64,000 nucleotides of DNA from a virus (taxonomy: Duplodnaviria; Heunggongvirae; Uroviricota; Caudoviricetes). The stretch lies in IMG/VR virus record IMGVR_UViG_3300046804_001959; one strand, 5' to 3'. Each line of letters starts with the position of its first letter. The first letter of the stretch is position 1. The notes below the pieces were generated by a model. It saw nothing but the letters and a program-made list of their open reading frames with translations. It did no database searches and was not told the DNA's origin. This document shows positions 31,272-41,225 of the stretch, in pieces. The position numbers were made by a program, and so were the translations under genes.

Positions 31272-31782
31272 CGTGTATTGCTTTCTTTATTACCGATCCA
31301 TGTCTATGACTGTCTAATAAAGGAGTCTGTGTTCCACTCATTCCAAAATAGTCTTCATACCATACGATATTACATACATACTTATCAATGTAGGACTTTA
31401 AACCAAAGTAGTCGTATACAGTAAACTGTATCTCTTTCAACAACACTTTCGTGTCGATATCAGGATAAAGCTTCAACATAAAGTTGGCATAGCTCATAAA
31501 AGCATCGAGCATGTTCTTTCGTAAGATCACATAGTCTGCTTTATCTACTATCAGATATGATGATTTATTTATCATCATGATACTACTTTTCTTATCGTAG
31601 ATAAGATCGGCGAATGCATTCGGAGTAAAATCATGTTGATATTTTGTCTCGTGATACTCCGCCTTCTTGTTAGAGAACATATAAAGTGGGTTTAGTTCTC
31701 CTACGAATGGAATGCCGGTCTGATCTTGTAAGTCAAGACAAAACGCAGTAGCTCCGCACCGAGGAAGCGAGCATACGATCAT
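31252..31782 (-). CDS. Sulfotransferase-like P-loop protein
   Basis: N-terminal VCSLPRCGATAF...GELNP resembles the PRSGST PAPS-binding loop; ILRKNMLDAFMS. Confidence 0.5.
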   Translation of the reverse strand: MIVCSLPRCGATAFCLDLQDQTGIPFVGELNPLYMFSNKKAEYHETKYQHDFTPNAFADLIYDKKSSIMMINKSSYLIVDKADYVILRKNMLDAFMSYANFMLKLYPDIDTKVLLKEIQFTVYDYFGLKSYIDKYVCNIVWYEDYFGMSGTQTPLLDSHRHGSVIKKAIHDVFTER

Positions 31783-32798
31783 TCATCATCTTTCATGAAC
31801 AACGCCGGAGGAAGAGCGTCGTTTTGTGTTGGTTCTTTCTTCATTTCAGTAAAATGATTTGATTTACCAGGAACATCTAAACTATATGTTCGTGACTGTT
31901 CTTCGATCTCGAGATTAATAAAATCAATTCCAAACTCTTGTCGAAACGATTCTAGCATATCTTCACGACAAGTATCTAAGTACTTCTTCCATTGCAGTCG
32001 ACCTATTTCAGAAAGTCTCTGTCTACGTCTTGCTCCAGCTGGTTCTGGTACATTATTTTTTGTATGCCAAGTTTTAGTGTCTGCTAAGTGGTATGAAACC
32101 ATTTTACTATGATGGAACATCTTATAACCGGCTGCATACGACATCATGGCCATCATTACCTCTTCACCTTCGAAGAAGATCTTCGGATCTAATCCGACGT
32201 TATCTACCCAATCTTTATGAGTAAAGAAATTTCCAGCCATAATATGAAACGCAGGTTCAGGCATTTCAGTTGGAGAAATAGGATCTCCGTGTACTGTTGG
32301 AATCAAAGTATCTGGATCGATAGTATAGTATCGTACTTTACATGCCATATCTTCTTGCTCAAGCAAATACGTCTTAATCTCATCTCCATCTATCTGAATA
32401 TCGAACCCTTTACACGAACCAGTAATGACGATTTTATTTGTGCCTGAAATATCCATCGCCCTCTTATAGTCTTCGATCAGCGAACGATCCCAATGCTGAT
32501 CATGTAAAATATGCGAATCGATCTGATAGATGAAATCAAACTCATCTGTCACGTTCAACATGTTTACGTATCTTGCCCATACACATCCATCTGAATATTC
32601 AGGATCGATTCTTTTGTAGATCACGTCGTTGCGGCCTACTAATACGGGTTCTGTGCATGCAAGAGAATCTTCGTAACGAGTCTGTTCGAAGATCGAGTAC
32701 ACGACGTTGTTTCTATTAGATTTGGTTTGCATCATACTCTTGATAGTATGCGGCAGCAATGGATCTTGGTAAGAACAGATCGAAACGAAAATATTCAT
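31779..32798 (-). CDS. Glycosyltransferase resembling hydroxyproline N-acetylglucosaminyltransferase (Skp1 Gnt1 / GT60-like)
   Basis: IFVSICSYQDP..T, SIFEQ, GCVWAR, YQIDSH...WD..LI, AGNFF, FFEGEE motifs. Confidence 0.75.
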   Translation of the reverse strand: MNIFVSICSYQDPLLPHTIKSMMQTKSNRNNVVYSIFEQTRYEDSLACTEPVLVGRNDVIYKRIDPEYSDGCVWARYVNMLNVTDEFDFIYQIDSHILHDQHWDRSLIEDYKRAMDISGTNKIVITGSCKGFDIQIDGDEIKTYLLEQEDMACKVRYYTIDPDTLIPTVHGDPISPTEMPEPAFHIMAGNFFTHKDWVDNVGLDPKIFFEGEEVMMAMMSYAAGYKMFHHSKMVSYHLADTKTWHTKNNVPEPAGARRRQRLSEIGRLQWKKYLDTCREDMLESFRQEFGIDFINLEIEEQSRTYSLDVPGKSNHFTEMKKEPTQNDALPPALFMKDDE

Positions 32799-33535
32799 TA
32801 TTCACTCTCTTTGTCTATTTTAAAAATTTTCTTGGTTCTCATGAACTTTCGATAGTATTGTTTATCATCTCCAGGAATTAGGTTTTTGACTTTATCTACC
32901 TGTTCTTCTGTACCCGGACCGACTGATGCCGTAATAGTTTTATTCAAGAAAGGCATTACATGTAAGAGGGGTTCTCCTGCTTTAATATGCACTTCGCACT
33001 CTCTTCTCGGCATACAAATAAAATTTACCACATGAAATTTGTTATAGTCGACTATACCAGGAATTACATGTAAATCTTCAAAGTGAGATCCATGATACGT
33101 GGCAGGCATAACCATGGCGCTAATGTCTTTTCTGGCGAAGATTTTCCAAGGTGATGGGAATAGAATAGCAGTAGCAGGGACGTTTTCCACTTCGAACGAT
33201 CCATCTAACAAACGCGGATCCATATGAACCCCGGGTTCGAATCCTCGATCACCACGTGTTGCGTTATCTCCAATATACCATGAAACTCCAGCCTTATTTG
33301 CCAAAATATGAATATCTACCCATGCTGGAATAATATATCCATACTGTGAATAGTCCAAAATACCTGGACATCCTGGCATTAAGTGTTTTCCATATTTGTC
33401 TAGTTGAGTGCGATATGTATTCGTCTTAACATCACATGCCCGTTCTACTGTAAAGTTGTAATACGAAAGACGTTTAGAATCTACAAATTCCAAATCTTTT
33501 TTTGATTGAAACCACGATGAAAAGGGATTCTTCAT
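32798..33535 (-). CDS. Conserved phage protein (DUF6065-like, dUTPase-like beta fold suspected), paralog 1
   Basis: CPGILDY...GYIIPAW.D; F.SPW; PGIVDY; I.AGEPL. Confidence 0.6.
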   Translation of the reverse strand: MKNPFSSWFQSKKDLEFVDSKRLSYYNFTVERACDVKTNTYRTQLDKYGKHLMPGCPGILDYSQYGYIIPAWVDIHILANKAGVSWYIGDNATRGDRGFEPGVHMDPRLLDGSFEVENVPATAILFPSPWKIFARKDISAMVMPATYHGSHFEDLHVIPGIVDYNKFHVVNFICMPRRECEVHIKAGEPLLHVMPFLNKTITASVGPGTEEQVDKVKNLIPGDDKQYYRKFMRTKKIFKIDKESE

Positions 33536-34269
33536 TTTCTTGCGGCCCTCAGTTCGTCAGTATAAACTTTTCTACGAGTATTTTGCATCTTCATAATCAT
33601 ATCGATATGATAACGTTCTTTATCTGTAACGCTTCTTATCACGGGCTTCGAAGGTACTGCATCTCTCTTGATCGGAATAGCTAAGATCAGTGGAGTTCCC
33701 GCAGGTAGCAAATCATCGAAGTTAGGAGTATTCCATATAGCTGGAAAGTTAACTTCTTTTGGATAGACATCAGTATCCACGAGGCCCGAAAGACACGTGA
33801 AATGATTATTCATATTATTGATCAACGGAGTGAAGAGAGTCGACCAGCCCGGTGCTGTCTTTACGATCCACGGGTTAATGAACTTGAGAGGAGGAGCTGG
33901 AAATCCAGGAGCGGTTCTCTCTCCAAGTTGACGAATATCATGGAACTCACAGACGTTGATGTTTGGAGAAGATGTGACTTCGATTGTGCTGCAATCGTGA
34001 TTTGATTTTACAGAGAGATCTGCTATCAAGGGAATAACATATCCAAGAGACATCGCATCCAACATAGGCATGCACTTCTTGGCAGTAAACGTATGAGCTC
34101 CGTATTGATCTCGATCGTTATTACCATCGTTGATGACCGGAGGGATTTTCTTGTACCACTCTGGAATGTATTTGGCTGCAGGTCGAGGATGTGGAAGAGT
34201 AGCTACATCATCGCGATGACACATGAACTCAATGATAGATTTCTTCTTAAAAGGATTCCAATTCAACAT
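33532..34269 (-). CDS. Conserved phage protein (DUF6065-like), paralog 2
   Basis: KKCMPMLDAMSLGYVIP; KFINPW..KTAPGWSTLF; GLVDTD; AGTPL. Confidence 0.6.
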   Translation of the reverse strand: MLNWNPFKKKSIIEFMCHRDDVATLPHPRPAAKYIPEWYKKIPPVINDGNNDRDQYGAHTFTAKKCMPMLDAMSLGYVIPLIADLSVKSNHDCSTIEVTSSPNINVCEFHDIRQLGERTAPGFPAPPLKFINPWIVKTAPGWSTLFTPLINNMNNHFTCLSGLVDTDVYPKEVNFPAIWNTPNFDDLLPAGTPLILAIPIKRDAVPSKPVIRSVTDKERYHIDMIMKMQNTRRKVYTDELRAARK

Positions 34270-34856
34270 TCTCTTTCACCCATTACCCATGCTACAAGAC
34301 TTCTACGTAAACCTGATGTGACAGGTGCTACACGATGCGGCATCCATGAAGCAAAGAAGACCATATCACCTTTATTGGGTTTAAACGAAACCTTATTTTC
34401 GAGATTACCGTTATTGACTATTTCAAGCTCTCCGCCTTCGTATTCGCTTGGATCAGAGAGTATGAGAACCATCGAGATTTTACGAACCCATTTCTGCCAA
34501 CCAAACTCTACATCCCAGTGCCATGTATAGTGCTGATTCGGACCATACTTGGTATACTGAAACGCATCGACTCCATCGATGTTGTACATGAAGTTATCAT
34601 AGTTGACGGCAGAAGTGATGCTAGCTATTCGATTGAATAGCCAGTCGCTATGTTGATCGTGATGGATCCATGAGATATCTGAATCACGAGTTTCTGGAGG
34701 AGCATCTACATTTTCATCCAGACCTACTTTTCCCTTTTCAAACTGTTGAAGTTTTTCAAGATCGATGATCTTATCAACTTCTTCTGAAGTAAATCCTCCA
34801 GTCCATACTGCGAAACAGTTTAACTGCTTCCCATACTTAGGAATATTATATGGCAT
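34263..34856 (-). CDS. 2OG-Fe(II) oxygenase, prolyl 4-hydroxylase-like
   Basis: FQYTKY....HYTWHWD, RKISMVL.LSDP.EYEGGEL, PHRVAPVTSGLRRSLVAW. Confidence 0.9.
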   Translation of the reverse strand: MPYNIPKYGKQLNCFAVWTGGFTSEEVDKIIDLEKLQQFEKGKVGLDENVDAPPETRDSDISWIHHDQHSDWLFNRIASITSAVNYDNFMYNIDGVDAFQYTKYGPNQHYTWHWDVEFGWQKWVRKISMVLILSDPSEYEGGELEIVNNGNLENKVSFKPNKGDMVFFASWMPHRVAPVTSGLRRSLVAWVMGEREC

Positions 34857-34878: not shown

Positions 34879-36918
34879 TTATTGAATGGTGATGTCGATG
34901 TATCCTCCGGGAGCCACGGTTACCGAGTGTGTTTGACCATCTGGGTATGAGTAGTAGCTTGCCTTCTGATTATTTATAACAGGTGCAGTGGTTCCTCCGG
35001 AATTTGATCCCGGGAATGTAATGCCAAGGGCAGACGATGGATTTCCTGGAACTGCAGGAGTAGGAGTATTATAGTTCTGTGGACCATTGGTTGCAGGGTT
35101 ATAGTTCTGCGGTCCTCCTGTAGCAGGGTTGTAGTTTTGAGGCCCATTGGTTGCAGGGTTATAGTTTTGAGGCCCATTGGTTGCAGGGTTATAGTTCTGA
35201 GGACCGTTCGTAGGCAAGTTGTAGTTGGCTGGTCCGTTAGTAGGAACATTGTAGTTAGCTGGTCCATTCGCTACATTGTAGTTGGCCGGTCCATTGGCTA
35301 CGTTGTAGTTTTGTGGGCCGTTCGCTACGTTGTAGTTCTGAGGACCATTGGTTGCAGGGTTGTAGTTCTGAGGACCATTGGTTGCAGGATTGTAGTTTTG
35401 CGGCCCGTTTGTTGCAGGATTGTAGTTAGCAGGTCCATTGGCTACGTTATAGTTTTGAGGTCCATTTGTAGCTGGGTTGTAGTTCTGAGGACCATTGGTT
35501 GCAGCATTGTAGTTAGTTGGACCACCTGTAGGAGCATTGTAGTTAGCTGGACCAGGGGCCACATTGTAATTCTGAGGACCATTGGTTGCAGCATTGTAGT
35601 TAGCTGGACCGTTCGTCGGTGCATTGTAGTTAGCTGGACCATTGGCCACATTGTAGTTTTGTGGGCCGGCAGTCGGAGCATTGTAGTTAGCTGGACCGTT
35701 CGTCGGAGCATTGTAATTAGCTGGACCGTTTGTAGCAGCATTAAAGTTTGCAGGACCGTTTGTAGCTGCATTATAGTTAGCTGGACCGTTCGTCGGTGAA
35801 TTATAGTTAGCTGGACCGTTAGTAGCAGCATTGTAGTTTGCGGGTCCAGGCTGCGGCGCGTTGAGATTTCCAGGTTGGTTCGATAAGCCGTATTTTACGA
35901 AGTAAATATACTGCGGGTTACCAGGAACGATGTTGTATCCAGCTACATTTCCTGGAATCTTGTTATAGCCTGATACGCTACCTCCGACGATATTGTATCC
36001 GGATATGTTACCAGGAACGATGTTGTATCCACTTACGTTACCAGGAATGATATTGTAACCGGCTACAGGACCGGGAGTGATGTTATAACCGGCTACAGGA
36101 CCGGGAATCCTGTTGTAAGTTCCAGTTCCTGGATAGATGATGTTATACGTAGAGATGTTACCAGGAACGATGTTGTATCCGGATATGTTACCGGCAATGA
36201 CATTGTAAGTTCCAGTTCCGGGATAGATGATGTTGTAGGTAGCTATAGGTCCTGGATTAATATTGTATATACCGGTAGCGTTTCCTGGAATTTTGTTGTA
36301 TATACCGGTAGCGTTTCCTGGAACGATATTGTATGTGCCGGTTCCAGGATAGATGATGTTGTACGTAGCGATATTACCAGGAATGATGTTATATGTACCG
36401 GTAGCATTTCCTGGAACGATGTTGTAGATTCCCGTGGCATTGCCAGGAACGATATTGTATGTGCCGGTTCCAGGATAGATGATGTTGTAAGTGCCGGTTC
36501 CTGGATAGATGATGTTGTATCCTGCCACCGGATAGATGATGTTATACGTATTTACAGGACCAGGAATGATATTGTAGTTGGCTATAGGGCCAGGAACGAT
36601 GTTGTAGATTCCCGTGGCATTGCCTGGAATGATGTTGTAAGTTCCTGTAGCATTGCCCGGAACAATGTTGTATGTCCCAGTAGCGTTACCTGGAATTACG
36701 TTGTATGTACCGGTTGCGTTTCCAGGAATGATATTGTAGCTACCAGTTCCTGGTCCAGGAATCAGAGCAGTGCCAGTTCCTCCTCGTCCAGATACAAGAA
36801 CGCTGTTACGACCATAAGGAATCGAGATATTACCAGGAGAATTGAACTTCGTAGTCGCTACGCCGGAAGCACGCCACGTTTTCTCAAGTGTAAACTTATC
36901 ACTACCACCAATACCCAT
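34879..36918 (-). CDS. Fibre-associated protein with two mirror-image YN-repeat arms
   Basis: Start probably at 36918 (TAATG overlap with the upstream fibre stop). 27 YNIxPG units, a 25-aa linker, 27 YNxxxNGP units, flanked by a split Gly-rich beta domain. Confidence 0.8.
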   Translation of the reverse strand: MGIGGSDKFTLEKTWRASGVATTKFNSPGNISIPYGRNSVLVSGRGGTGTALIPGPGTGSYNIIPGNATGTYNVIPGNATGTYNIVPGNATGTYNIIPGNATGIYNIVPGPIANYNIIPGPVNTYNIIYPVAGYNIIYPGTGTYNIIYPGTGTYNIVPGNATGIYNIVPGNATGTYNIIPGNIATYNIIYPGTGTYNIVPGNATGIYNKIPGNATGIYNINPGPIATYNIIYPGTGTYNVIAGNISGYNIVPGNISTYNIIYPGTGTYNRIPGPVAGYNITPGPVAGYNIIPGNVSGYNIVPGNISGYNIVGGSVSGYNKIPGNVAGYNIVPGNPQYIYFVKYGLSNQPGNLNAPQPGPANYNAATNGPANYNSPTNGPANYNAATNGPANFNAATNGPANYNAPTNGPANYNAPTAGPQNYNVANGPANYNAPTNGPANYNAATNGPQNYNVAPGPANYNAPTGGPTNYNAATNGPQNYNPATNGPQNYNVANGPANYNPATNGPQNYNPATNGPQNYNPATNGPQNYNVANGPQNYNVANGPANYNVANGPANYNVPTNGPANYNLPTNGPQNYNPATNGPQNYNPATNGPQNYNPATGGPQNYNPATNGPQNYNTPTPAVPGNPSSALGITFPGSNSGGTTAPVINNQKASYYSYPDGQTHSVTVAPGGYIDITIQ
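34971..34978 (-). promoter_or_regulatory. Candidate late promoter TATAAATA within the 3' end of the repeat gene, about 115 nt upstream of the P4H-like gene
   Basis: Exact consensus, but inside a CDS so chance occurrence is possible. Confidence 0.45.
35056..35835 (-). repeat. Coding tandem repeat arm 2: 27 units of 27/30 nt (YN[AP][AP]TNGP[AQ]N and YNVANGP[AQ]N)
   Basis: Counted from translation. Confidence 0.9.
35911..36738 (-). repeat. Coding tandem repeat arm 1: 27 units of 27-33 nt (YNIxPGNATGT, YNIIYPGTGT, YNIxPGxxxG)
   Basis: Counted from translation. Confidence 0.9.
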
Positions 36919-39900
36919 TACGCGGCGCCCTTCACCGTGAGTGATCCGATCCAACTTGTTCCACCGTCATAAGTCATGAGTGACCAGATGTCGATAGCGT
37001 TGGCTGTTGTCGTTGCAGGAGGAGCTGAACCTCCTGGCCATTTGATTCCTGTCGGCCAAGTGATCGTACGACCACCTGTGGCATCTTGCTTGGCAACGAT
37101 AGTTCCTGCCCACATTCTTGTGCTCGGTGGAACATTCGATGGCGAGATGGTAATGCTTCCTGTAAGAGTCAGCTCGAAGAAGTTGGCCGCAGTACAATCC
37201 ATCGTCCATGTACCAGTAGTAGCGGTGTTAGCTACTTCTGCTTCCGTGTAACCAGTTAGAACCGGGTTGGTGATGTTGTTGTTTGCCATGATCAGGTTGG
37301 CAGACAGCGTAGTAGTACCGGATACAGCAAAGTTGCTGTTCCATGTCAGAGGACCTGCACCAGCACGTCCGAGCTTGATAGCGTTGTTTTCGTTACCGAA
37401 TACGATGTAACCGTTGTTGGCGTTTTGCTGACCCATGACACGGACAGTATCTGCTTGGTTTACGTCACCGAACCAAGCGTCATCACCGATCTTGACGTTC
37501 GTTCCACCACCGTTGTTGCTTGTCAAGATCTGATCGACTTGGAGTGCGGTGTTGACGTGAATACCAGTGCTGTTAACAGTCAGCGTAGAACCAGTAGTAA
37601 CACCGATGGTTCCAGTAGAAGTGATCGTTCCGCCAGATAGACCGTTTGCTGTAGCTACAGATGTAACACCGGCATCGTCTACTCCCCAGTAGACCGATGT
37701 ACCGTTCGAGTGCAGAACATGACCGGATGTACCAAGCGAGTTGTTAGCGTAGATGCCAACACTTGCCATGTCGATGTCGGTGTTGAAACGGAACGCGCCG
37801 CCTTGTACACCCGCATTCGAGTTGGCATAGATGTTGAAGGCAGGACGAGCACCAGCCGTAGTATTGGCCATGTACAATACGAGGTTGTTATCGCTTTGAA
37901 GCTCGAAGTATGCACCTGTAGCGGCGCTGTTCGATAGGAAGTGTAGTCTCTTGCCGTTGCCAAGCGTTGCGTGTGTTGCGTTGGCTACGAAGTTCGAACC
38001 TACACTCAGTACTGCCGAGTTGACCGAAGATGTCGCGTTGACAAATCCAGTAATCGTAGTGTTACCAGCTGCAAGAGTAGTGATACCTGTTACTGCTTGA
38101 GCAGCGCTTGTCGACTGGATAGTGGTTGTGCCAAGATACAGAGCTGGAAGTCGAGCGGCTGCAAGTGTTCCAGTGCTGATATTCGTAGCGTTGGTGTAGT
38201 AAGCAGCTGCTTGTCCACCTAGATTTGTAGAGTTGTTAGCAGTCAGCGCGCTGTTAGCGTTGATTGCACCTTCGGATTTACCGAATGCATACGTAGCATT
38301 GTTCGCAGTGCCCGTAAACGCAGTGGTGTTGATCGTTCCATAAACAGAGGTGTTTCCGATATACAGAGTGTTTGCTTGGAATGCAGCGATACGGAAAGTT
38401 GCGTTTGCGGTGTCGATGTAAGCAGATGCATCTGGTTCTGGAGAATAGTTGTCAAAGACTTTCCAAACACCGTCTGTGGCATCACGGAAGAAACCTGCGT
38501 GATGGTAAGTTCCGTCGTTGTAATTACCAGCAAAACCAAGATCAGGGTTTGATACAGTATTGTTCGCGTTCAGATAGATCATGTTATCCTGAACGGAGAG
38601 AGTAGCAGTATTGACCGTAGTCGTCGTACCTTGGACGGTGATGTTACCTGTTACAGTGATGTTACCGAAGGTGACTGTATCAGTAGTACGAACGTCTTGG
38701 TTCATGCGATACGGTAGACGTGCTTCAGCGAGAGTACCGTTGTTTGCATTCGAAGCGTTCGCTGCAAAGATAGTAGCGTTCGTATATGCAGCTGCAGCGT
38801 TTGCTACCATTGCTGTATTCGCTGTGCCGATCTTTGTGTCTACATATGATACTGCATTGGTATAAGCAGTAGCAGCATTACCGGTAATGGCAGAGTTGGC
38901 AGTACCGATCTTGGTGTCTGTATAGGTTACAGCATTACTGTATGCCGCTCCGGCGTTCGCGGTAATATTGGCTTGAATAGATGCAAGACTACTACCACCT
39001 ACGTTTAGAGCATTATTCGCTGTACCTGAAAACGATGTGGCGTTCAGCGTAGAGTTAGCTAATGTTGTACCGATCGTCAGCGCTGTAGAGTTAGCAATAA
39101 GAGACGATGATGTTGAATTAATATTAGCGATCTGAATGACGTTAATAGAGTTACCGCTATTAAGTGTAACGTTAGCAGAAAATGATACGATACCGTTTAC
39201 AGAATATCCACCAGCAGTAACAAACGAGGTGGCATTTGTATAAGCTGCAGCTGCGTTCGCTACGATAGCTGAGTTAGCGGTTCCGATCTTGGTATCTGTA
39301 TAGCTGACAGCGTTAGTGTATGCAGTAGCTGCATTGCCAGTGATGGCGCCGTTAGCAGTCAGAATCTTGCCATCTGTATAGGACACTGCATTAGTGTATG
39401 CAGTAGCTGCGTTTCCAGTAATAGCACCATTGGCGGTCAGAATCTTGCCATCTGTATAGGACACTGCGTTGGTGTATGCAGCTGCAATTGCAGTGTTAGC
39501 AGTTCCGATCTTTGTGTCGGTATAGCTTACTGCATTTGTATAAGCTGCAGCTGCTGCGGTTGCTGCAGTCTGAGCGTTTGTGTTTGCAGTGATAGCTGCG
39601 TCGTAAGCTGTCTTGACAGAAGCTGCAGAACCAGCAGCAGTCGTAGAAGTGTTTGCTACCGAGTCGACAAGAACCACTGCACCCGCAGAAGTTGAGTTAC
39701 CGGCTGGAAGTCGAGCTGAGTTGACGGTTCCGGAAGTCAGGTTTGTAGCGTTAGCTGCGATAGCGATTGCATTGGTGTATGCAGCACCTGCAGCAGTTAA
39801 AGCGGTTTGAGCATTTGTATTAGCAGTAACAGCCGTATCATAAGCAGTTTTTACACTGTTTGCAGTAGCTACGTAAGAAACTGAAGTGTTGTTGACTGCA

Positions 39901-41225
39901 TCTAGCACTGGAATACGAGCAATCGCTACGGTTCCTGAAGAAAGGTTCGATGCATTCGCTGCAAAGGCAGTAGCGTTTGTGTATGCATCAGAAGCCGCAG
40001 TCTGAGCAGATGCAGCTCGCGTATTAGCAGCGATAGCAGCATCGTATGCAGTCTTGACAGAGTTAGCAGTAGCTACATACGAAACTGAAGTATTGTTAAC
40101 AGCATCGACTGTAGGAATACGAGCGATCGCCACTGTACCAGAAGAAAGGTTCGATGCGTTCGAAGAGTATGCTACTGCGTTCGAATATGCATCACCGGCT
40201 TTAGTGTTAGCATACGATATCGCATTCGAGTAAGCAGCCGCAGCAAGAGTTCCAGCAGCAGTGTTTGCAGTGATCGCAGCATCATATGCAGTCTTGACAG
40301 AAGCAGCAGAAGCTGCAGCCGTAGTAGATGTATTTGAGACTGAGTCGACTAGGATAACAGCACCGGCTGCAGTCGAGTTTCCTGATGGAAGACGAGCTGA
40401 GTTGACTGTACCGCTCGTGAGATACGTCGCGTTCGAAGCAAGGTTCTCAGTATATGTACGAAGATCAGATGCGCTATTTCCACCAACTGTTGCAGCGTTC
40501 ACCGAAGTAAGAGAAGCACCGTTACCTGAGAATGCCGTCGAGTTGATAGCAGAGTACACGCTTGAGTTACCAATCGAGATAACAGAAGTGTTTACTGTTA
40601 CGCCTCTAACGTAAATAGATGTGTTAGAGATGTTTAAACCCGTAACTGCAAACATGCCAGTACGAGATACTTGGCCATAATCTGCATATGTTACGTTTGC
40701 TACTACGTACGATTTTGATGTGATCAACTCATCGTGCGAAACAGCAGCATAGTATGTGTTACCAGTTTCTGTAGTCGAATCTGTAAACGAGATTACGGTG
40801 CCAGTAATAGTGCCGACGTCGTTACCTTGTGTAACTGTTACATTGCTTGCTTTAATGCTAACAGTATCGGCTACGTTCAGCGCGATCGATACGTTGACAG
40901 TAGATGGAAGACGGTTAACAGATAGAGTACCGGTTGTGAGGTTACTCGCGTTAGCAGCAAAAGAAATGGCATTTGAGTATGCGTTGGATGCTTTTGCATC
41001 TGCATAGAATGCCGCGTTCGAGTATGCATCTGCAGCTTTACCGTCTGCATAGTTTACACCGTTGGCATATGCGTTGTCTGCAGCTCCGCTGATCGATGTA
41101 GAGTTGATCGTTGTAGCGCCGATTACAAGGCTGCCATTCGAAATGGTTACATTACCTTGAGTTACTGCAACTCCGTTTGCAACGGTTAACCCGTTCTTAA
41201 CGCGAAAATTAACTGGTGTAGTCAT
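36918..41225 (-). CDS. Long tail fibre-like protein (1435 aa)
   Basis: Four copies of a phage tail fibre repeat (..SVKTAYDAA), 22-aa helical repeats AYTNAVSYTDxKIxTAN, C-terminal WPxxxKWPGG..P..T domain. Confidence 0.85.
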   Translation of the reverse strand: MTTPVNFRVKNGLTVANGVAVTQGNVTISNGSLVIGATTINSTSISGAADNAYANGVNYADGKAADAYSNAAFYADAKASNAYSNAISFAANASNLTTGTLSVNRLPSTVNVSIALNVADTVSIKASNVTVTQGNDVGTITGTVISFTDSTTETGNTYYAAVSHDELITSKSYVVANVTYADYGQVSRTGMFAVTGLNISNTSIYVRGVTVNTSVISIGNSSVYSAINSTAFSGNGASLTSVNAATVGGNSASDLRTYTENLASNATYLTSGTVNSARLPSGNSTAAGAVILVDSVSNTSTTAAASAASVKTAYDAAITANTAAGTLAAAAYSNAISYANTKAGDAYSNAVAYSSNASNLSSGTVAIARIPTVDAVNNTSVSYVATANSVKTAYDAAIAANTRAASAQTAASDAYTNATAFAANASNLSSGTVAIARIPVLDAVNNTSVSYVATANSVKTAYDTAVTANTNAQTALTAAGAAYTNAIAIAANATNLTSGTVNSARLPAGNSTSAGAVVLVDSVANTSTTAAGSAASVKTAYDAAITANTNAQTAATAAAAAYTNAVSYTDTKIGTANTAIAAAYTNAVSYTDGKILTANGAITGNAATAYTNAVSYTDGKILTANGAITGNAATAYTNAVSYTDTKIGTANSAIVANAAAAYTNATSFVTAGGYSVNGIVSFSANVTLNSGNSINVIQIANINSTSSSLIANSTALTIGTTLANSTLNATSFSGTANNALNVGGSSLASIQANITANAGAAYSNAVTYTDTKIGTANSAITGNAATAYTNAVSYVDTKIGTANTAMVANAAAAYTNATIFAANASNANNGTLAEARLPYRMNQDVRTTDTVTFGNITVTGNITVQGTTTTVNTATLSVQDNMIYLNANNTVSNPDLGFAGNYNDGTYHHAGFFRDATDGVWKVFDNYSPEPDASAYIDTANATFRIAAFQANTLYIGNTSVYGTINTTAFTGTANNATYAFGKSEGAINANSALTANNSTNLGGQAAAYYTNATNISTGTLAAARLPALYLGTTTIQSTSAAQAVTGITTLAAGNTTITGFVNATSSVNSAVLSVGSNFVANATHATLGNGKRLHFLSNSAATGAYFELQSDNNLVLYMANTTAGARPAFNIYANSNAGVQGGAFRFNTDIDMASVGIYANNSLGTSGHVLHSNGTSVYWGVDDAGVTSVATANGLSGGTITSTGTIGVTTGSTLTVNSTGIHVNTALQVDQILTSNNGGGTNVKIGDDAWFGDVNQADTVRVMGQQNANNGYIVFGNENNAIKLGRAGAGPLTWNSNFAVSGTTTLSANLIMANNNITNPVLTGYTEAEVANTATTGTWTMDCTAANFFELTLTGSITISPSNVPPSTRMWAGTIVAKQDATGGRTITWPTGIKWPGGSAPPATTTANAIDIWSLMTYDGGTSWIGSLTVKGAA

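Follow-up and report, generated by a model that had tools for sequence, protein, structure and literature searches.

What structure is adopted by a protein in which two long arms, built from unlike short repeats, carry their sequence variants in mirrored order? The question is raised by an intact open reading frame (ORF) of 679 amino acids (aa) plus stop at positions 34879..36918, on the minus strand, of a 64,000-nucleotide stretch of viral DNA (IMG/VR record IMGVR_UViG_3300046804_001959), which is referred to as the window throughout. A preliminary description of this gene had proposed that the chain folds back on itself in an antiparallel manner. This core proposal was borne out by equal arm lengths, matched unit changes and mirror-register covariation in 46 of 46 cases, and we are fairly confident that the gene encodes a fibre-associated structural 'protein stem-loop', featuring a split base, paired arms and an anchored stalk.

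For unit counting, the open frame 34879-36954(-) was translated and cut at each [YF]N. The window protein starts with an N-terminal part of 60 aa and continues with 27 units of 9-11 aa, which an aromatic linker of 25 aa separates from a second series of 27 units (9-10 aa each); it ends with a C-terminal part of ~55 aa. Our recount reproduced every figure given earlier for the 27 + 27 YN units around the linker YIYFVKYGLSNQPGNLNAPQPGPAN. All parts lie on the minus strand. The N half of the split base (MGIGGSDKFTLEKTWR...VSGRGGTG), together with a short pre-arm linker that faces arm-2 unit 27, is found at 36739..36918 and is followed by arm 1 at 35911..36738, which leads outward from the base with units of the types YNI(I/V)PGNATGT, YNIIYPGTGT, YNIxPGPxxx and YNIxPGN(I/V)Sx. 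The tip, 25-aa YIYFVKYGLSNQPGNLNAPQPGPAN at 35836..35910, holds a K-(Y/F)-G apex motif common to orthologs, and arm 2 at 35056..35835 leads back to the base with YNPATNGPQN, YNAPTNGPAN, YNAATNGPAN and 9-aa YNVANGPAN units, unit j lying opposite arm-1 unit 27-j. The C half of the base (..SSALGITFPGSN...YYSYPDGQTHSVTVAPGGYIDITIQ) occupies 34882..35055. Glycine accounts for 47 of 267 residues in arm 1 and 28 of 254 in arm 2, without glycine runs, and units such as YNIIPGNATGT and YNPATNGPQN display no collagen-like G-X-Y periodicity. Units are 9, 10 or 11 aa long without a 5-aa sub-period, and the protein contains a single histidine, no HxH motif and no cysteine. An N-x-S/T sequon (GNATG, GNISG, GNVSG) is present in most arm-1 units and in almost none of arm 2, which may matter if virion proteins are N-glycosylated.

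The mirrored arrangement is directly visible from the unit positions. As had been reported, YNIIYP occurs at arm-1 positions 7, 8, 9, 13, 17 and 20 and the shortened 9-aa YNVA(N/P)GP variant at arm-2 positions 7, 10, 14, 18, 19 and 20; since the positions sum to 27, all six YNIIYP units obey the rule i<->27-i. The PGNATG 11-mers are likewise located opposite YNPAT units in seven of eight cases, the exception (15<->12) being YNAAT. We additionally observed two more mirrored classes, PGP<->xPT (5/5) and PGN(I/V)(S/A)<->YNAAT (4/7). With four classes per arm, a one-to-one mapping is obeyed by 22 of the 26 pairs at i<->27-i, and the lengths of partner units are limited to the combinations (11,10), (10,10), (10,9) and (9,9). 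Mutual information amounts to 1.44 bits at the mirror register, compared to 0.70 at the best of 41 other mirror or direct registers. When arm 2 was shuffled 20,000 times and every shuffle was scanned in all registers, the values stayed below that observed, at 1.32 at most.

On the DNA level, the arms are not inverted repeats, in agreement with the preliminary description: the longest complementary match is 15 nt, and mirror partners show no excess similarity over non-partners, whether compared in reverse complement (0.406 vs 0.412) or in direct orientation (0.439 vs 0.446). An origin of the symmetry from a DNA inverted repeat is ruled out by these two observations. Both arms do contain four-unit higher-order DNA repeats, of 126 nt in arm 1 (36111-36520) and 117 nt in arm 2 (35324-35641), and the repeat block of arm 2 covers the mirror partners of that in arm 1. 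Rung blocks thus look as if duplicated on both sides.

The preliminary description had named mirrored covariation of variant orders among homologs as a check, and this covariation was found. A scan of IMG/VR yielded 33 loci with 14 distinct proteins of 389-686 aa, 12 of which carry the same two arm types. Two of these twelve have no aromatic-Pro units in arm 1 and no 9-aa VAN units in arm 2; in the remaining ten orthologs (51-70% identical) both types occur, at positions that differ between proteins in at least six patterns. A single constant i+j per protein places 46 of 46 aromatic-Pro units opposite VAN 9-mers; conversely, 46 of 48 VAN units are matched, and the other two are located opposite degenerate N(P/T)GTG units. 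Pattern changes among orthologs are compensated every time. The register of highest mutual information is the mirror register with shift 0 in all ten proteins, with a tie to one direct register in one of them (L023). Pooled over 234 rungs, PGP lies opposite YNxP in 22 of 22 and aromatic-Pro opposite VAN in 46 of 46 cases, and an 11-mer is never found opposite a 9-mer. At the tip, loci L011-L040 share the K-(Y/F)-G motif as FVKYG, SPKYG, NPKFG, RQKFG or the variant SIKYG, while the rest of the tip varies. Mirroring on the level of blocks was seen in the distant relative L039, where six PLVPGNLN 10-mers are opposed by six ATGQNSTGS 12-mers, and five TGGNLAA 11-mers lie opposite six PIVPGNAN units; in L040, block sizes are unlike those of L039 and are nevertheless matched between the arms.

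Matched arms extend to a much wider family. A profile of the N-terminal 52 positions identified the N half in 141 representative clusters among 1.84 billion proteins, always together with the C half, for which a hidden Markov model built from 42 members matched 150 proteins. Together with an initial homolog search, the profile search gave 147 full-length proteins, 133-679 aa in size, that carry both halves. The window protein (89.6 bits with the N-half and 77.5 bits with the C-half profile) is the longest of these, three IMG/VR orthologs found later being slightly longer (681-685 aa). The region between the halves is made up of YN-type units and aromatic or Cys-rich knobs; the YIYFV motif of the window tip is also present in P0007-like relatives, where it makes up the small first knob. 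Among the 67 members that have just one knob, the arms on either side of it are equally long, with lengths from 23 to 284 aa (median asymmetry 4.5%; Pearson r 0.88, slope 1.04; r 0.84 without the window protein; Kolmogorov-Smirnov test against a random split, p = 3e-35). Unequal and uncorrelated arms, named beforehand as a refutation, were consequently not what the homologs displayed. Across the family of at least 147 sequence clusters, stalk length varies nearly ten-fold with arms matched.

Paired gain and loss of units, also predicted earlier, is apparent from 21 close relatives with three knobs, whose inner arms comprise 3, 4, 5 or 6 units on both sides (r = 0.996, two anchors having been hand-corrected for this count), so that both arms change by the same unit number. 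Unmatched combinations of inner arms were not seen among these 21 proteins. On a tree of the flanking parts, inner-arm states change at least eight times, part of which could be accounted for by swapping of central cassettes, and three supported sister pairs differ by +10/+10, +17/+18 and +11/+13 residues. One metagenomic relative (P0092, 780 aa) features the N half, arms and a knob, but a Hint/intein-like end (GGGGGCCFSGDTLI...DHPFFVV) in place of the C half; this end may be an intein or a bacterial intein-like (BIL) domain, or the protein a truncated or fused form.

The second pillar of the reading is the split base. AlphaFold2 was run twice, once for the window protein, based on a family alignment of 50 rows, and once for P0055, a relative of 247 aa. 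In both runs, the two conserved ends are the only confidently folded parts, with a predicted local distance difference test score (pLDDT) of 84-97 (84-97 for the N half and 92-96 for the C half of the window protein), compared to a mean pLDDT of 52 for the whole window protein. The shortest spacing between the two halves is 26 aa. The split domain proposed in the preliminary description therefore holds, given that its halves are found together in 147 proteins, at spacings down to 26 aa, and are confidently folded in both AlphaFold2 runs; for the same reasons, the arms are best described as an out-and-back insertion in a split beta-sandwich. Taken together, both ends of the P0055 model aligned to single beta-sandwich domains in a VIA scan of 48,161 PDB chains (best Z 6.0), among them the CD109/alpha-2-macroglobulin/C3 split CUB domain (Z 5.2-6.0), nucleoplasmin, C1q/TNF (Z 4.3-4.4) and the TNF-like domain of ALK (Z 4.2). 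These matches are below the level that shows kinship and are generic beta-sandwich matches. Other fold libraries yielded nothing significant for the base domain: Foldseek returned no PDB match at E<=0.001, the best BFVD match had E 0.018, AFDB clusters E>=0.05 and the atlas a TM<=0.27. For arm 1, the low-confidence model places one strand of 4-6 residues in each of the first ~14 units (to ~residue 210), and a fold search with it returned solenoid and leucine-rich-repeat look-alikes (Z 6-7.4), which we regard as a hint only.

Since the base halves are 26 aa apart in some members and 570 in others, the ends of the insertion must be brought together, and since the arms are equally long and matched rung by rung, an intrachain fold-back, with a paired stalk emerging from a split beta-sandwich, is the simplest and most likely reading. 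We propose a model in which the first ~55 and last ~55 residues would form one small beta-sandwich base. Arm 1 would run out over 26 paired units, the 25-aa aromatic apex would turn the chain and arm 2 would return, with arm-1 unit i against arm-2 unit 27-i and each rung composed of one 9-11-aa unit per arm, 19-21 aa in total. The putative pairing code would combine 11-mers with YNPA-/YNxP-type units, PGP with YNxP and aromatic-Pro with the shortened 9-aa VAN units. Because rungs obey this code, stalk length would be altered only by matched gain or loss in both arms. Attachment to the virion would be through the base, with the end of the fibre encoded upstream as the most likely site, in the way that gp38 caps gp37 in S16/T2-type phages, and the paired arms would serve as a stiff spacer of tunable length whose distal end meets the host surface.

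Covariation fixes the register of the arms, not their geometry: a ladder of ~13 nm and an extended ribbon of ~85 nm fit equally well, and the very long filament envisaged in the preliminary description is one possible geometry. Of the two, we favour the compact ladder: at a rise of ~4.8 A per rung, the stalk would measure ~13 nm, each unit would combine a short strand-like stretch with a turn (PGN or NGP), and the invariant Tyr-Asn would resemble a stacking ladder. An extended two-stranded ribbon of ~85 nm and a two-layer polyproline II (PPII) sandwich are possible alternative geometries. Tentatively, the arms might represent an undescribed fold, a self-complementary two-arm ladder in which unlike repeats pair under a code and evolve in a compensatory manner like an RNA stem, giving a length-tunable and possibly hydroxyproline-glycosylated receptor-binding stalk; we consider this a serious candidate, although we would not yet bet on it. 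Such a ladder would differ from the known beta-solenoid, the polyglycine II (PGII) sandwich and the gp37-type needle.

Several observations weigh against the fold-back reading or limit it. Most of both arms have pLDDT <50 in the window protein and in P0055, and no prediction shows paired arms; the i<->27-i contacts that the preliminary description expected from a monomer model were therefore not confirmed, AlphaFold2 having left the arms unmodelled. The trimer prediction of the 178-aa relative P0058, run without controls, gave a score of 0.00 and counts neither for nor against. The pooled chi-square of 335 for the 234 rungs comes with p-values that overstate independence, because orthologs share ancestry. 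In the relative P0036 (401 aa), the arms are direct copies with the same order of six unusual units instead of a mirrored one, from which it follows that equal arm length can also arise from duplication and that mirroring on the unit level is not universal. A family-wide rule pairing GGN-type with PGN-type units was unsupported by a crude parse (10 S-S pairs vs 7.6 expected). The apex in the subfamily of the window protein, a putative receptor-binding site in the preliminary description, carries the conserved K-(Y/F)-G and not a hypervariable loop, and no cultured phage with the family was found among GenBank phage genomes. Virion location, oligomeric state, binding partner and receptor binding all derive from context. 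Lastly, covariation alone fits an intrachain hairpin as well as a head-to-tail domain-swapped oligomer.

In such an antiparallel oligomer, two extended chains would lie head to tail, arm 1 pairing with arm 2 of the other chain and each base being assembled from the halves of two chains. Exactly the same mirror covariation and equal arm lengths would be predicted. The 26-aa spacing and the graded arms of 23-284 aa, however, fit a loop insertion growing within one domain; AlphaFold2 folds both halves in monomer runs with pLDDT >90, the halves of P0055 align to single beta-sandwich domains, and the large globular Cys-containing knobs at the turning point of many members are more easily placed at a distal tip than midway along a rod. 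The swapped oligomer is thus less parsimonious than the hairpin, and we regard it as improbable.

The low pLDDT over both arms, the sub-threshold Pfam matches to Extensin_1 and Pro-rich models and the conserved prolyl-hydroxylase-type and N-acetylglucosamine (GlcNAc)-transferase genes downstream would also agree with an unpaired, flexible glycoprotein loop, an extensin- or mucin-like disordered or PPII brush whose symmetry stems from its duplication history. We consider this very unlikely indeed, since it gives no reason for 46 of 46 mirror matches across differing ortholog patterns, nor for equal arms in 67 proteins and matched unit gains, and since the arms are not DNA-level copies in either orientation. 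Alternatively, the protein could fold back as described but be absent from the mature particle, acting as a fibre-assembly chaperone or scaffold. T4 encodes its gp38 chaperone after the long fibre gene, and the gene studied here holds that same position. A chaperone, though, has no obvious need for a stalk of 3-27 rungs or hypervariable Cys/aromatic knobs, the base-to-tip conservation gradient is typical of receptor-binding proteins and the adjacent modification enzymes suit an exposed surface protein, leaving a non-virion role quite improbable in our view.

A virion role of the fold-back protein is further approached from its genomic surroundings. The window represents the structural gene region from an uncultured T4-like myovirus, with genes for portal, sheath, major capsid protein, large terminase, baseplate wedge and several fibres. 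Its capsid protein shares ~60% identity with the counterparts in Pelagibacter phage Mosig, Methylophilales Melnitz phages and Synechococcus myoviruses; the phage carrying the fold-back gene is a marine, uncultured, T4-like one. No DNA-level match was obtained when 12 kb of the region were compared by megablast with 50,697 GenBank phage genomes. Directly upstream, and translationally coupled, lies a tail-fibre gene of 1435 aa (36918..41225, minus strand), whose C-terminal ~135 aa match the PHROG tail-fibre C-terminal families phrog_9017 and phrog_7760 and which shows a weak match to Phage_fiber_2; it contains repeats of its own, of the types AAYTNAVSYTD(G/T)KI.TAN and SGTV..ARLP. The start ATG of the fold-back gene at 36918 forms a TAATG overlap with the stop of this fibre gene, and the N-termini of homologs start with MGIGGG.... 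Because this ATG is the true start, the boundaries 34879-36918 assigned in the preliminary description are correct, though the open frame reaches 36954. Long ORFs in other frames over the repeats (35137-35799 on the plus strand, 35442-35831 and 34974-35267 on the minus strand) are frame artefacts of the repeats and not genes.

Downstream, a 22-nt spacer separates the stop of the fold-back gene from a prolyl-4-hydroxylase (P4H)-type 2-oxoglutarate (2OG)-Fe(II) oxygenase gene (34263..34856; PF13640, E 1.4e-19), followed by two DUF6065-type genes (33532-34269 and 32798-33535; assigned by library matches and synteny) and, as the last of the conserved block, a GlcNAc-type glycosyltransferase gene (31779..32798; PF11397, E 8.9e-26), all on the minus strand. 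In the window and six other contigs the module has the order DUF4815 protein, large protein, small protein, fibre-like protein, fold-back family, P4H-type oxygenase, DUF6065, DUF6065-like and GlcNAc transferase. The oxygenase is located 0-2 genes downstream of the family member in all six other contigs examined. The full downstream block is present in the window and, among the loci L001, L003-L005, L009 and L010, in the three contig types that extend far enough, and shorter contigs contain at least the oxygenase; the upstream gene in other contigs codes for a fibre-like protein that is shorter and contains PF26209. An obvious candidate substrate of the downstream enzymes is the repeat protein, whose arm prolines, judging from gene content, may possibly be hydroxylated and glycosylated by them. 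Among close relatives, mean identity decreases from 84% in the base to 70-75% in base-proximal arms and 47% in the central part, the gradient expected of a base-anchored protein that meets the host with its far end. Gene position, conserved base and variable distal part point to a role as fibre-associated stalk or adhesin, with the upstream-encoded fibre as the likely attachment partner. In abundant, uncultured marine myoviruses, we would thus be dealing with a probable host-recognition protein that is accompanied by a hydroxylase and glycosyltransferase cassette of its own.

Searches for known relatives left the family largely on its own. In Pfam, the window protein, P0055, P0115 and 50 members gave no family, the only matches being sub-threshold ones to Extensin_1 and Pro-rich models, and Pentapeptide_2 matched just one of the 50 members. 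The sole PHROGs match was to a family of unknown function (9e-8), and a PDB sequence search returned nothing. Against the 50,697 GenBank phage genomes, tblastn with the whole protein detected only low-identity repeats of Caulobacter phages ('pentapeptide repeat' proteins, 24% identity), and separate tblastn queries with the N and the C half remained without a match at E<=1. No description of the family or its architecture was found in the literature.

A recurring weak lead points to viral glycine-rich domain proteins (atlas feature score 0.85, atlas TM 0.27). The N half aligned by hhalign to 120 Mosig-related Gly_rich_2 proteins with a probability of 53% (E 1.4e-4) over 24 columns at the domain start, while no alignment was obtained for the C half, and the Pfam models of Gly_rich_2 and ALK_LTK_GRD matched neither the window protein, P0055, P0115 nor the 50 members at E<=1. 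For these reasons kinship of the base with Gly_rich_2 is unproven, and of the Gly-rich base domain envisaged in the preliminary description, the split domain stands and its Gly-rich identity is a weak lead. Pelagibacter phage Mosig itself (MT647606.1; L008 278-1027 and 1498-3048) encodes a 516-aa Gly_rich_2 protein followed by a P4H-like 2OG oxygenase gene, and the start of its Gly_rich_2 domain, STFNSPGTF...VLMVAGGGGAG, resembles the N half of the fold-back family. The TNF-like domain of ALK carries 14 PPII helices (bioRxiv 10.1101/2023.11.25.568672). What Gly_rich_2 (PF21722) and ALK_LTK_GRD (PF12810) have in common with the fold-back family is a beta-sandwich split by a large Gly/Pro-rich insertion, and the start xFNSPGxxxIPxG...V.G.GG.G of the latter is similar to sFTSsGTFsVPsG...VvaGGGG in Gly_rich_2. 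In contrast to both, the fold-back family has neither a Pfam match nor polyglycine runs.

The original statement that no fibre of this architecture had been described is too strong, since chains that run out and back are already known, namely in the tip of T4 gp37 and in the S16 gp38 loop extensions. In the receptor-binding tip needle of the T4 long tail fibre protein gp37 (PDB 2XGF), the chains reportedly run to the distal end and return, as Bartual et al. are said to have found in 2010. As in the window protein, this is a distal fibre module of T4-like phages with an out-and-back chain and antiparallel N- and C-proximal segments, which covariation rather than a structure suggests here. The gp37 needle is an intertwined homotrimer. 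It has HxH-iron sites, unlike the window protein with its one histidine and no HxH or cysteine, and seven His-bound irons are aligned along it (PMC6957217). There is furthermore no sequence or Pfam relation, and the arms studied here consist of two unlike repeat types with a rung code and are up to five times longer.

The closest functional analogue, as far as the comparison carries, would be the gp38 adhesin. In S16 (PDB 6F45), gp38 displays a PGII sandwich on loop extensions, and a single chain caps trimeric gp37 (PMC6851490, PMC3157838). Genes of S16/T2-type gp38 are located right after the distal fibre gene, comparable to the TAATG overlap with the 1435-aa fibre gene, and a conserved attachment part, long loop extensions that go out and back along the fibre axis and distal loops would be shared features, as are repeats that are hard for predictors, being non-alpha and non-beta in gp38. 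S16 gp38, however, has 10 short Gly-rich motifs (>50% Gly) in three layers, which form PGII helices and are separated by hypervariable segments, while the window protein is Tyr-Asn-Pro-rich (Gly ~10-18%) with 26 pairs in two arms, and no sequence relation between the two was found.

As an analogy in design, without kinship, SMC, Rad50 and MukB proteins can be considered, in which the N- and C-termini form a head and the arms are intramolecular and antiparallel. A head made from both chain ends, a long antiparallel two-arm stalk, an apex and matched arm lengths would recur here, but those proteins are ATPases acting on DNA with alpha-helical coiled coils, whereas a structural gene module of a phage encodes the short Pro/Gly/Asn/Tyr repeats studied here. 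Beta-solenoids with short coils, like that of the Tenebrio molitor antifreeze protein (12 residues per coil), and pentapeptide-repeat proteins (about 20 aa per coil) resemble the arms in their very short units, one short strand per unit and Asn or aromatic ladders; since the arm-1 model is of low confidence, this resemblance is a geometric lead only. They differ in that unit lengths of 9, 10 or 11 are here coupled between arms, for which one continuous solenoid offers no explanation, and in the lack here of pentapeptide periodicity and disulfides.

There is precedent, then, both for fibre elements of out-and-back topology and for split domains bearing long paired arms, while there is a real chance that the fold of the arms themselves is new. 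Unlike in the known fold-back fibres, pairing can be read from the sequence as a rung-by-rung code between two unlike repeats, stalk length covers its nearly ten-fold range with arms matched, and current predictors cannot model the arms. Covariation supplies ready distance restraints (unit i with unit n-i) for such modelling. This renders the protein a clear target for structural biology and a natural example of a length-programmable, non-helical stalk for protein design.

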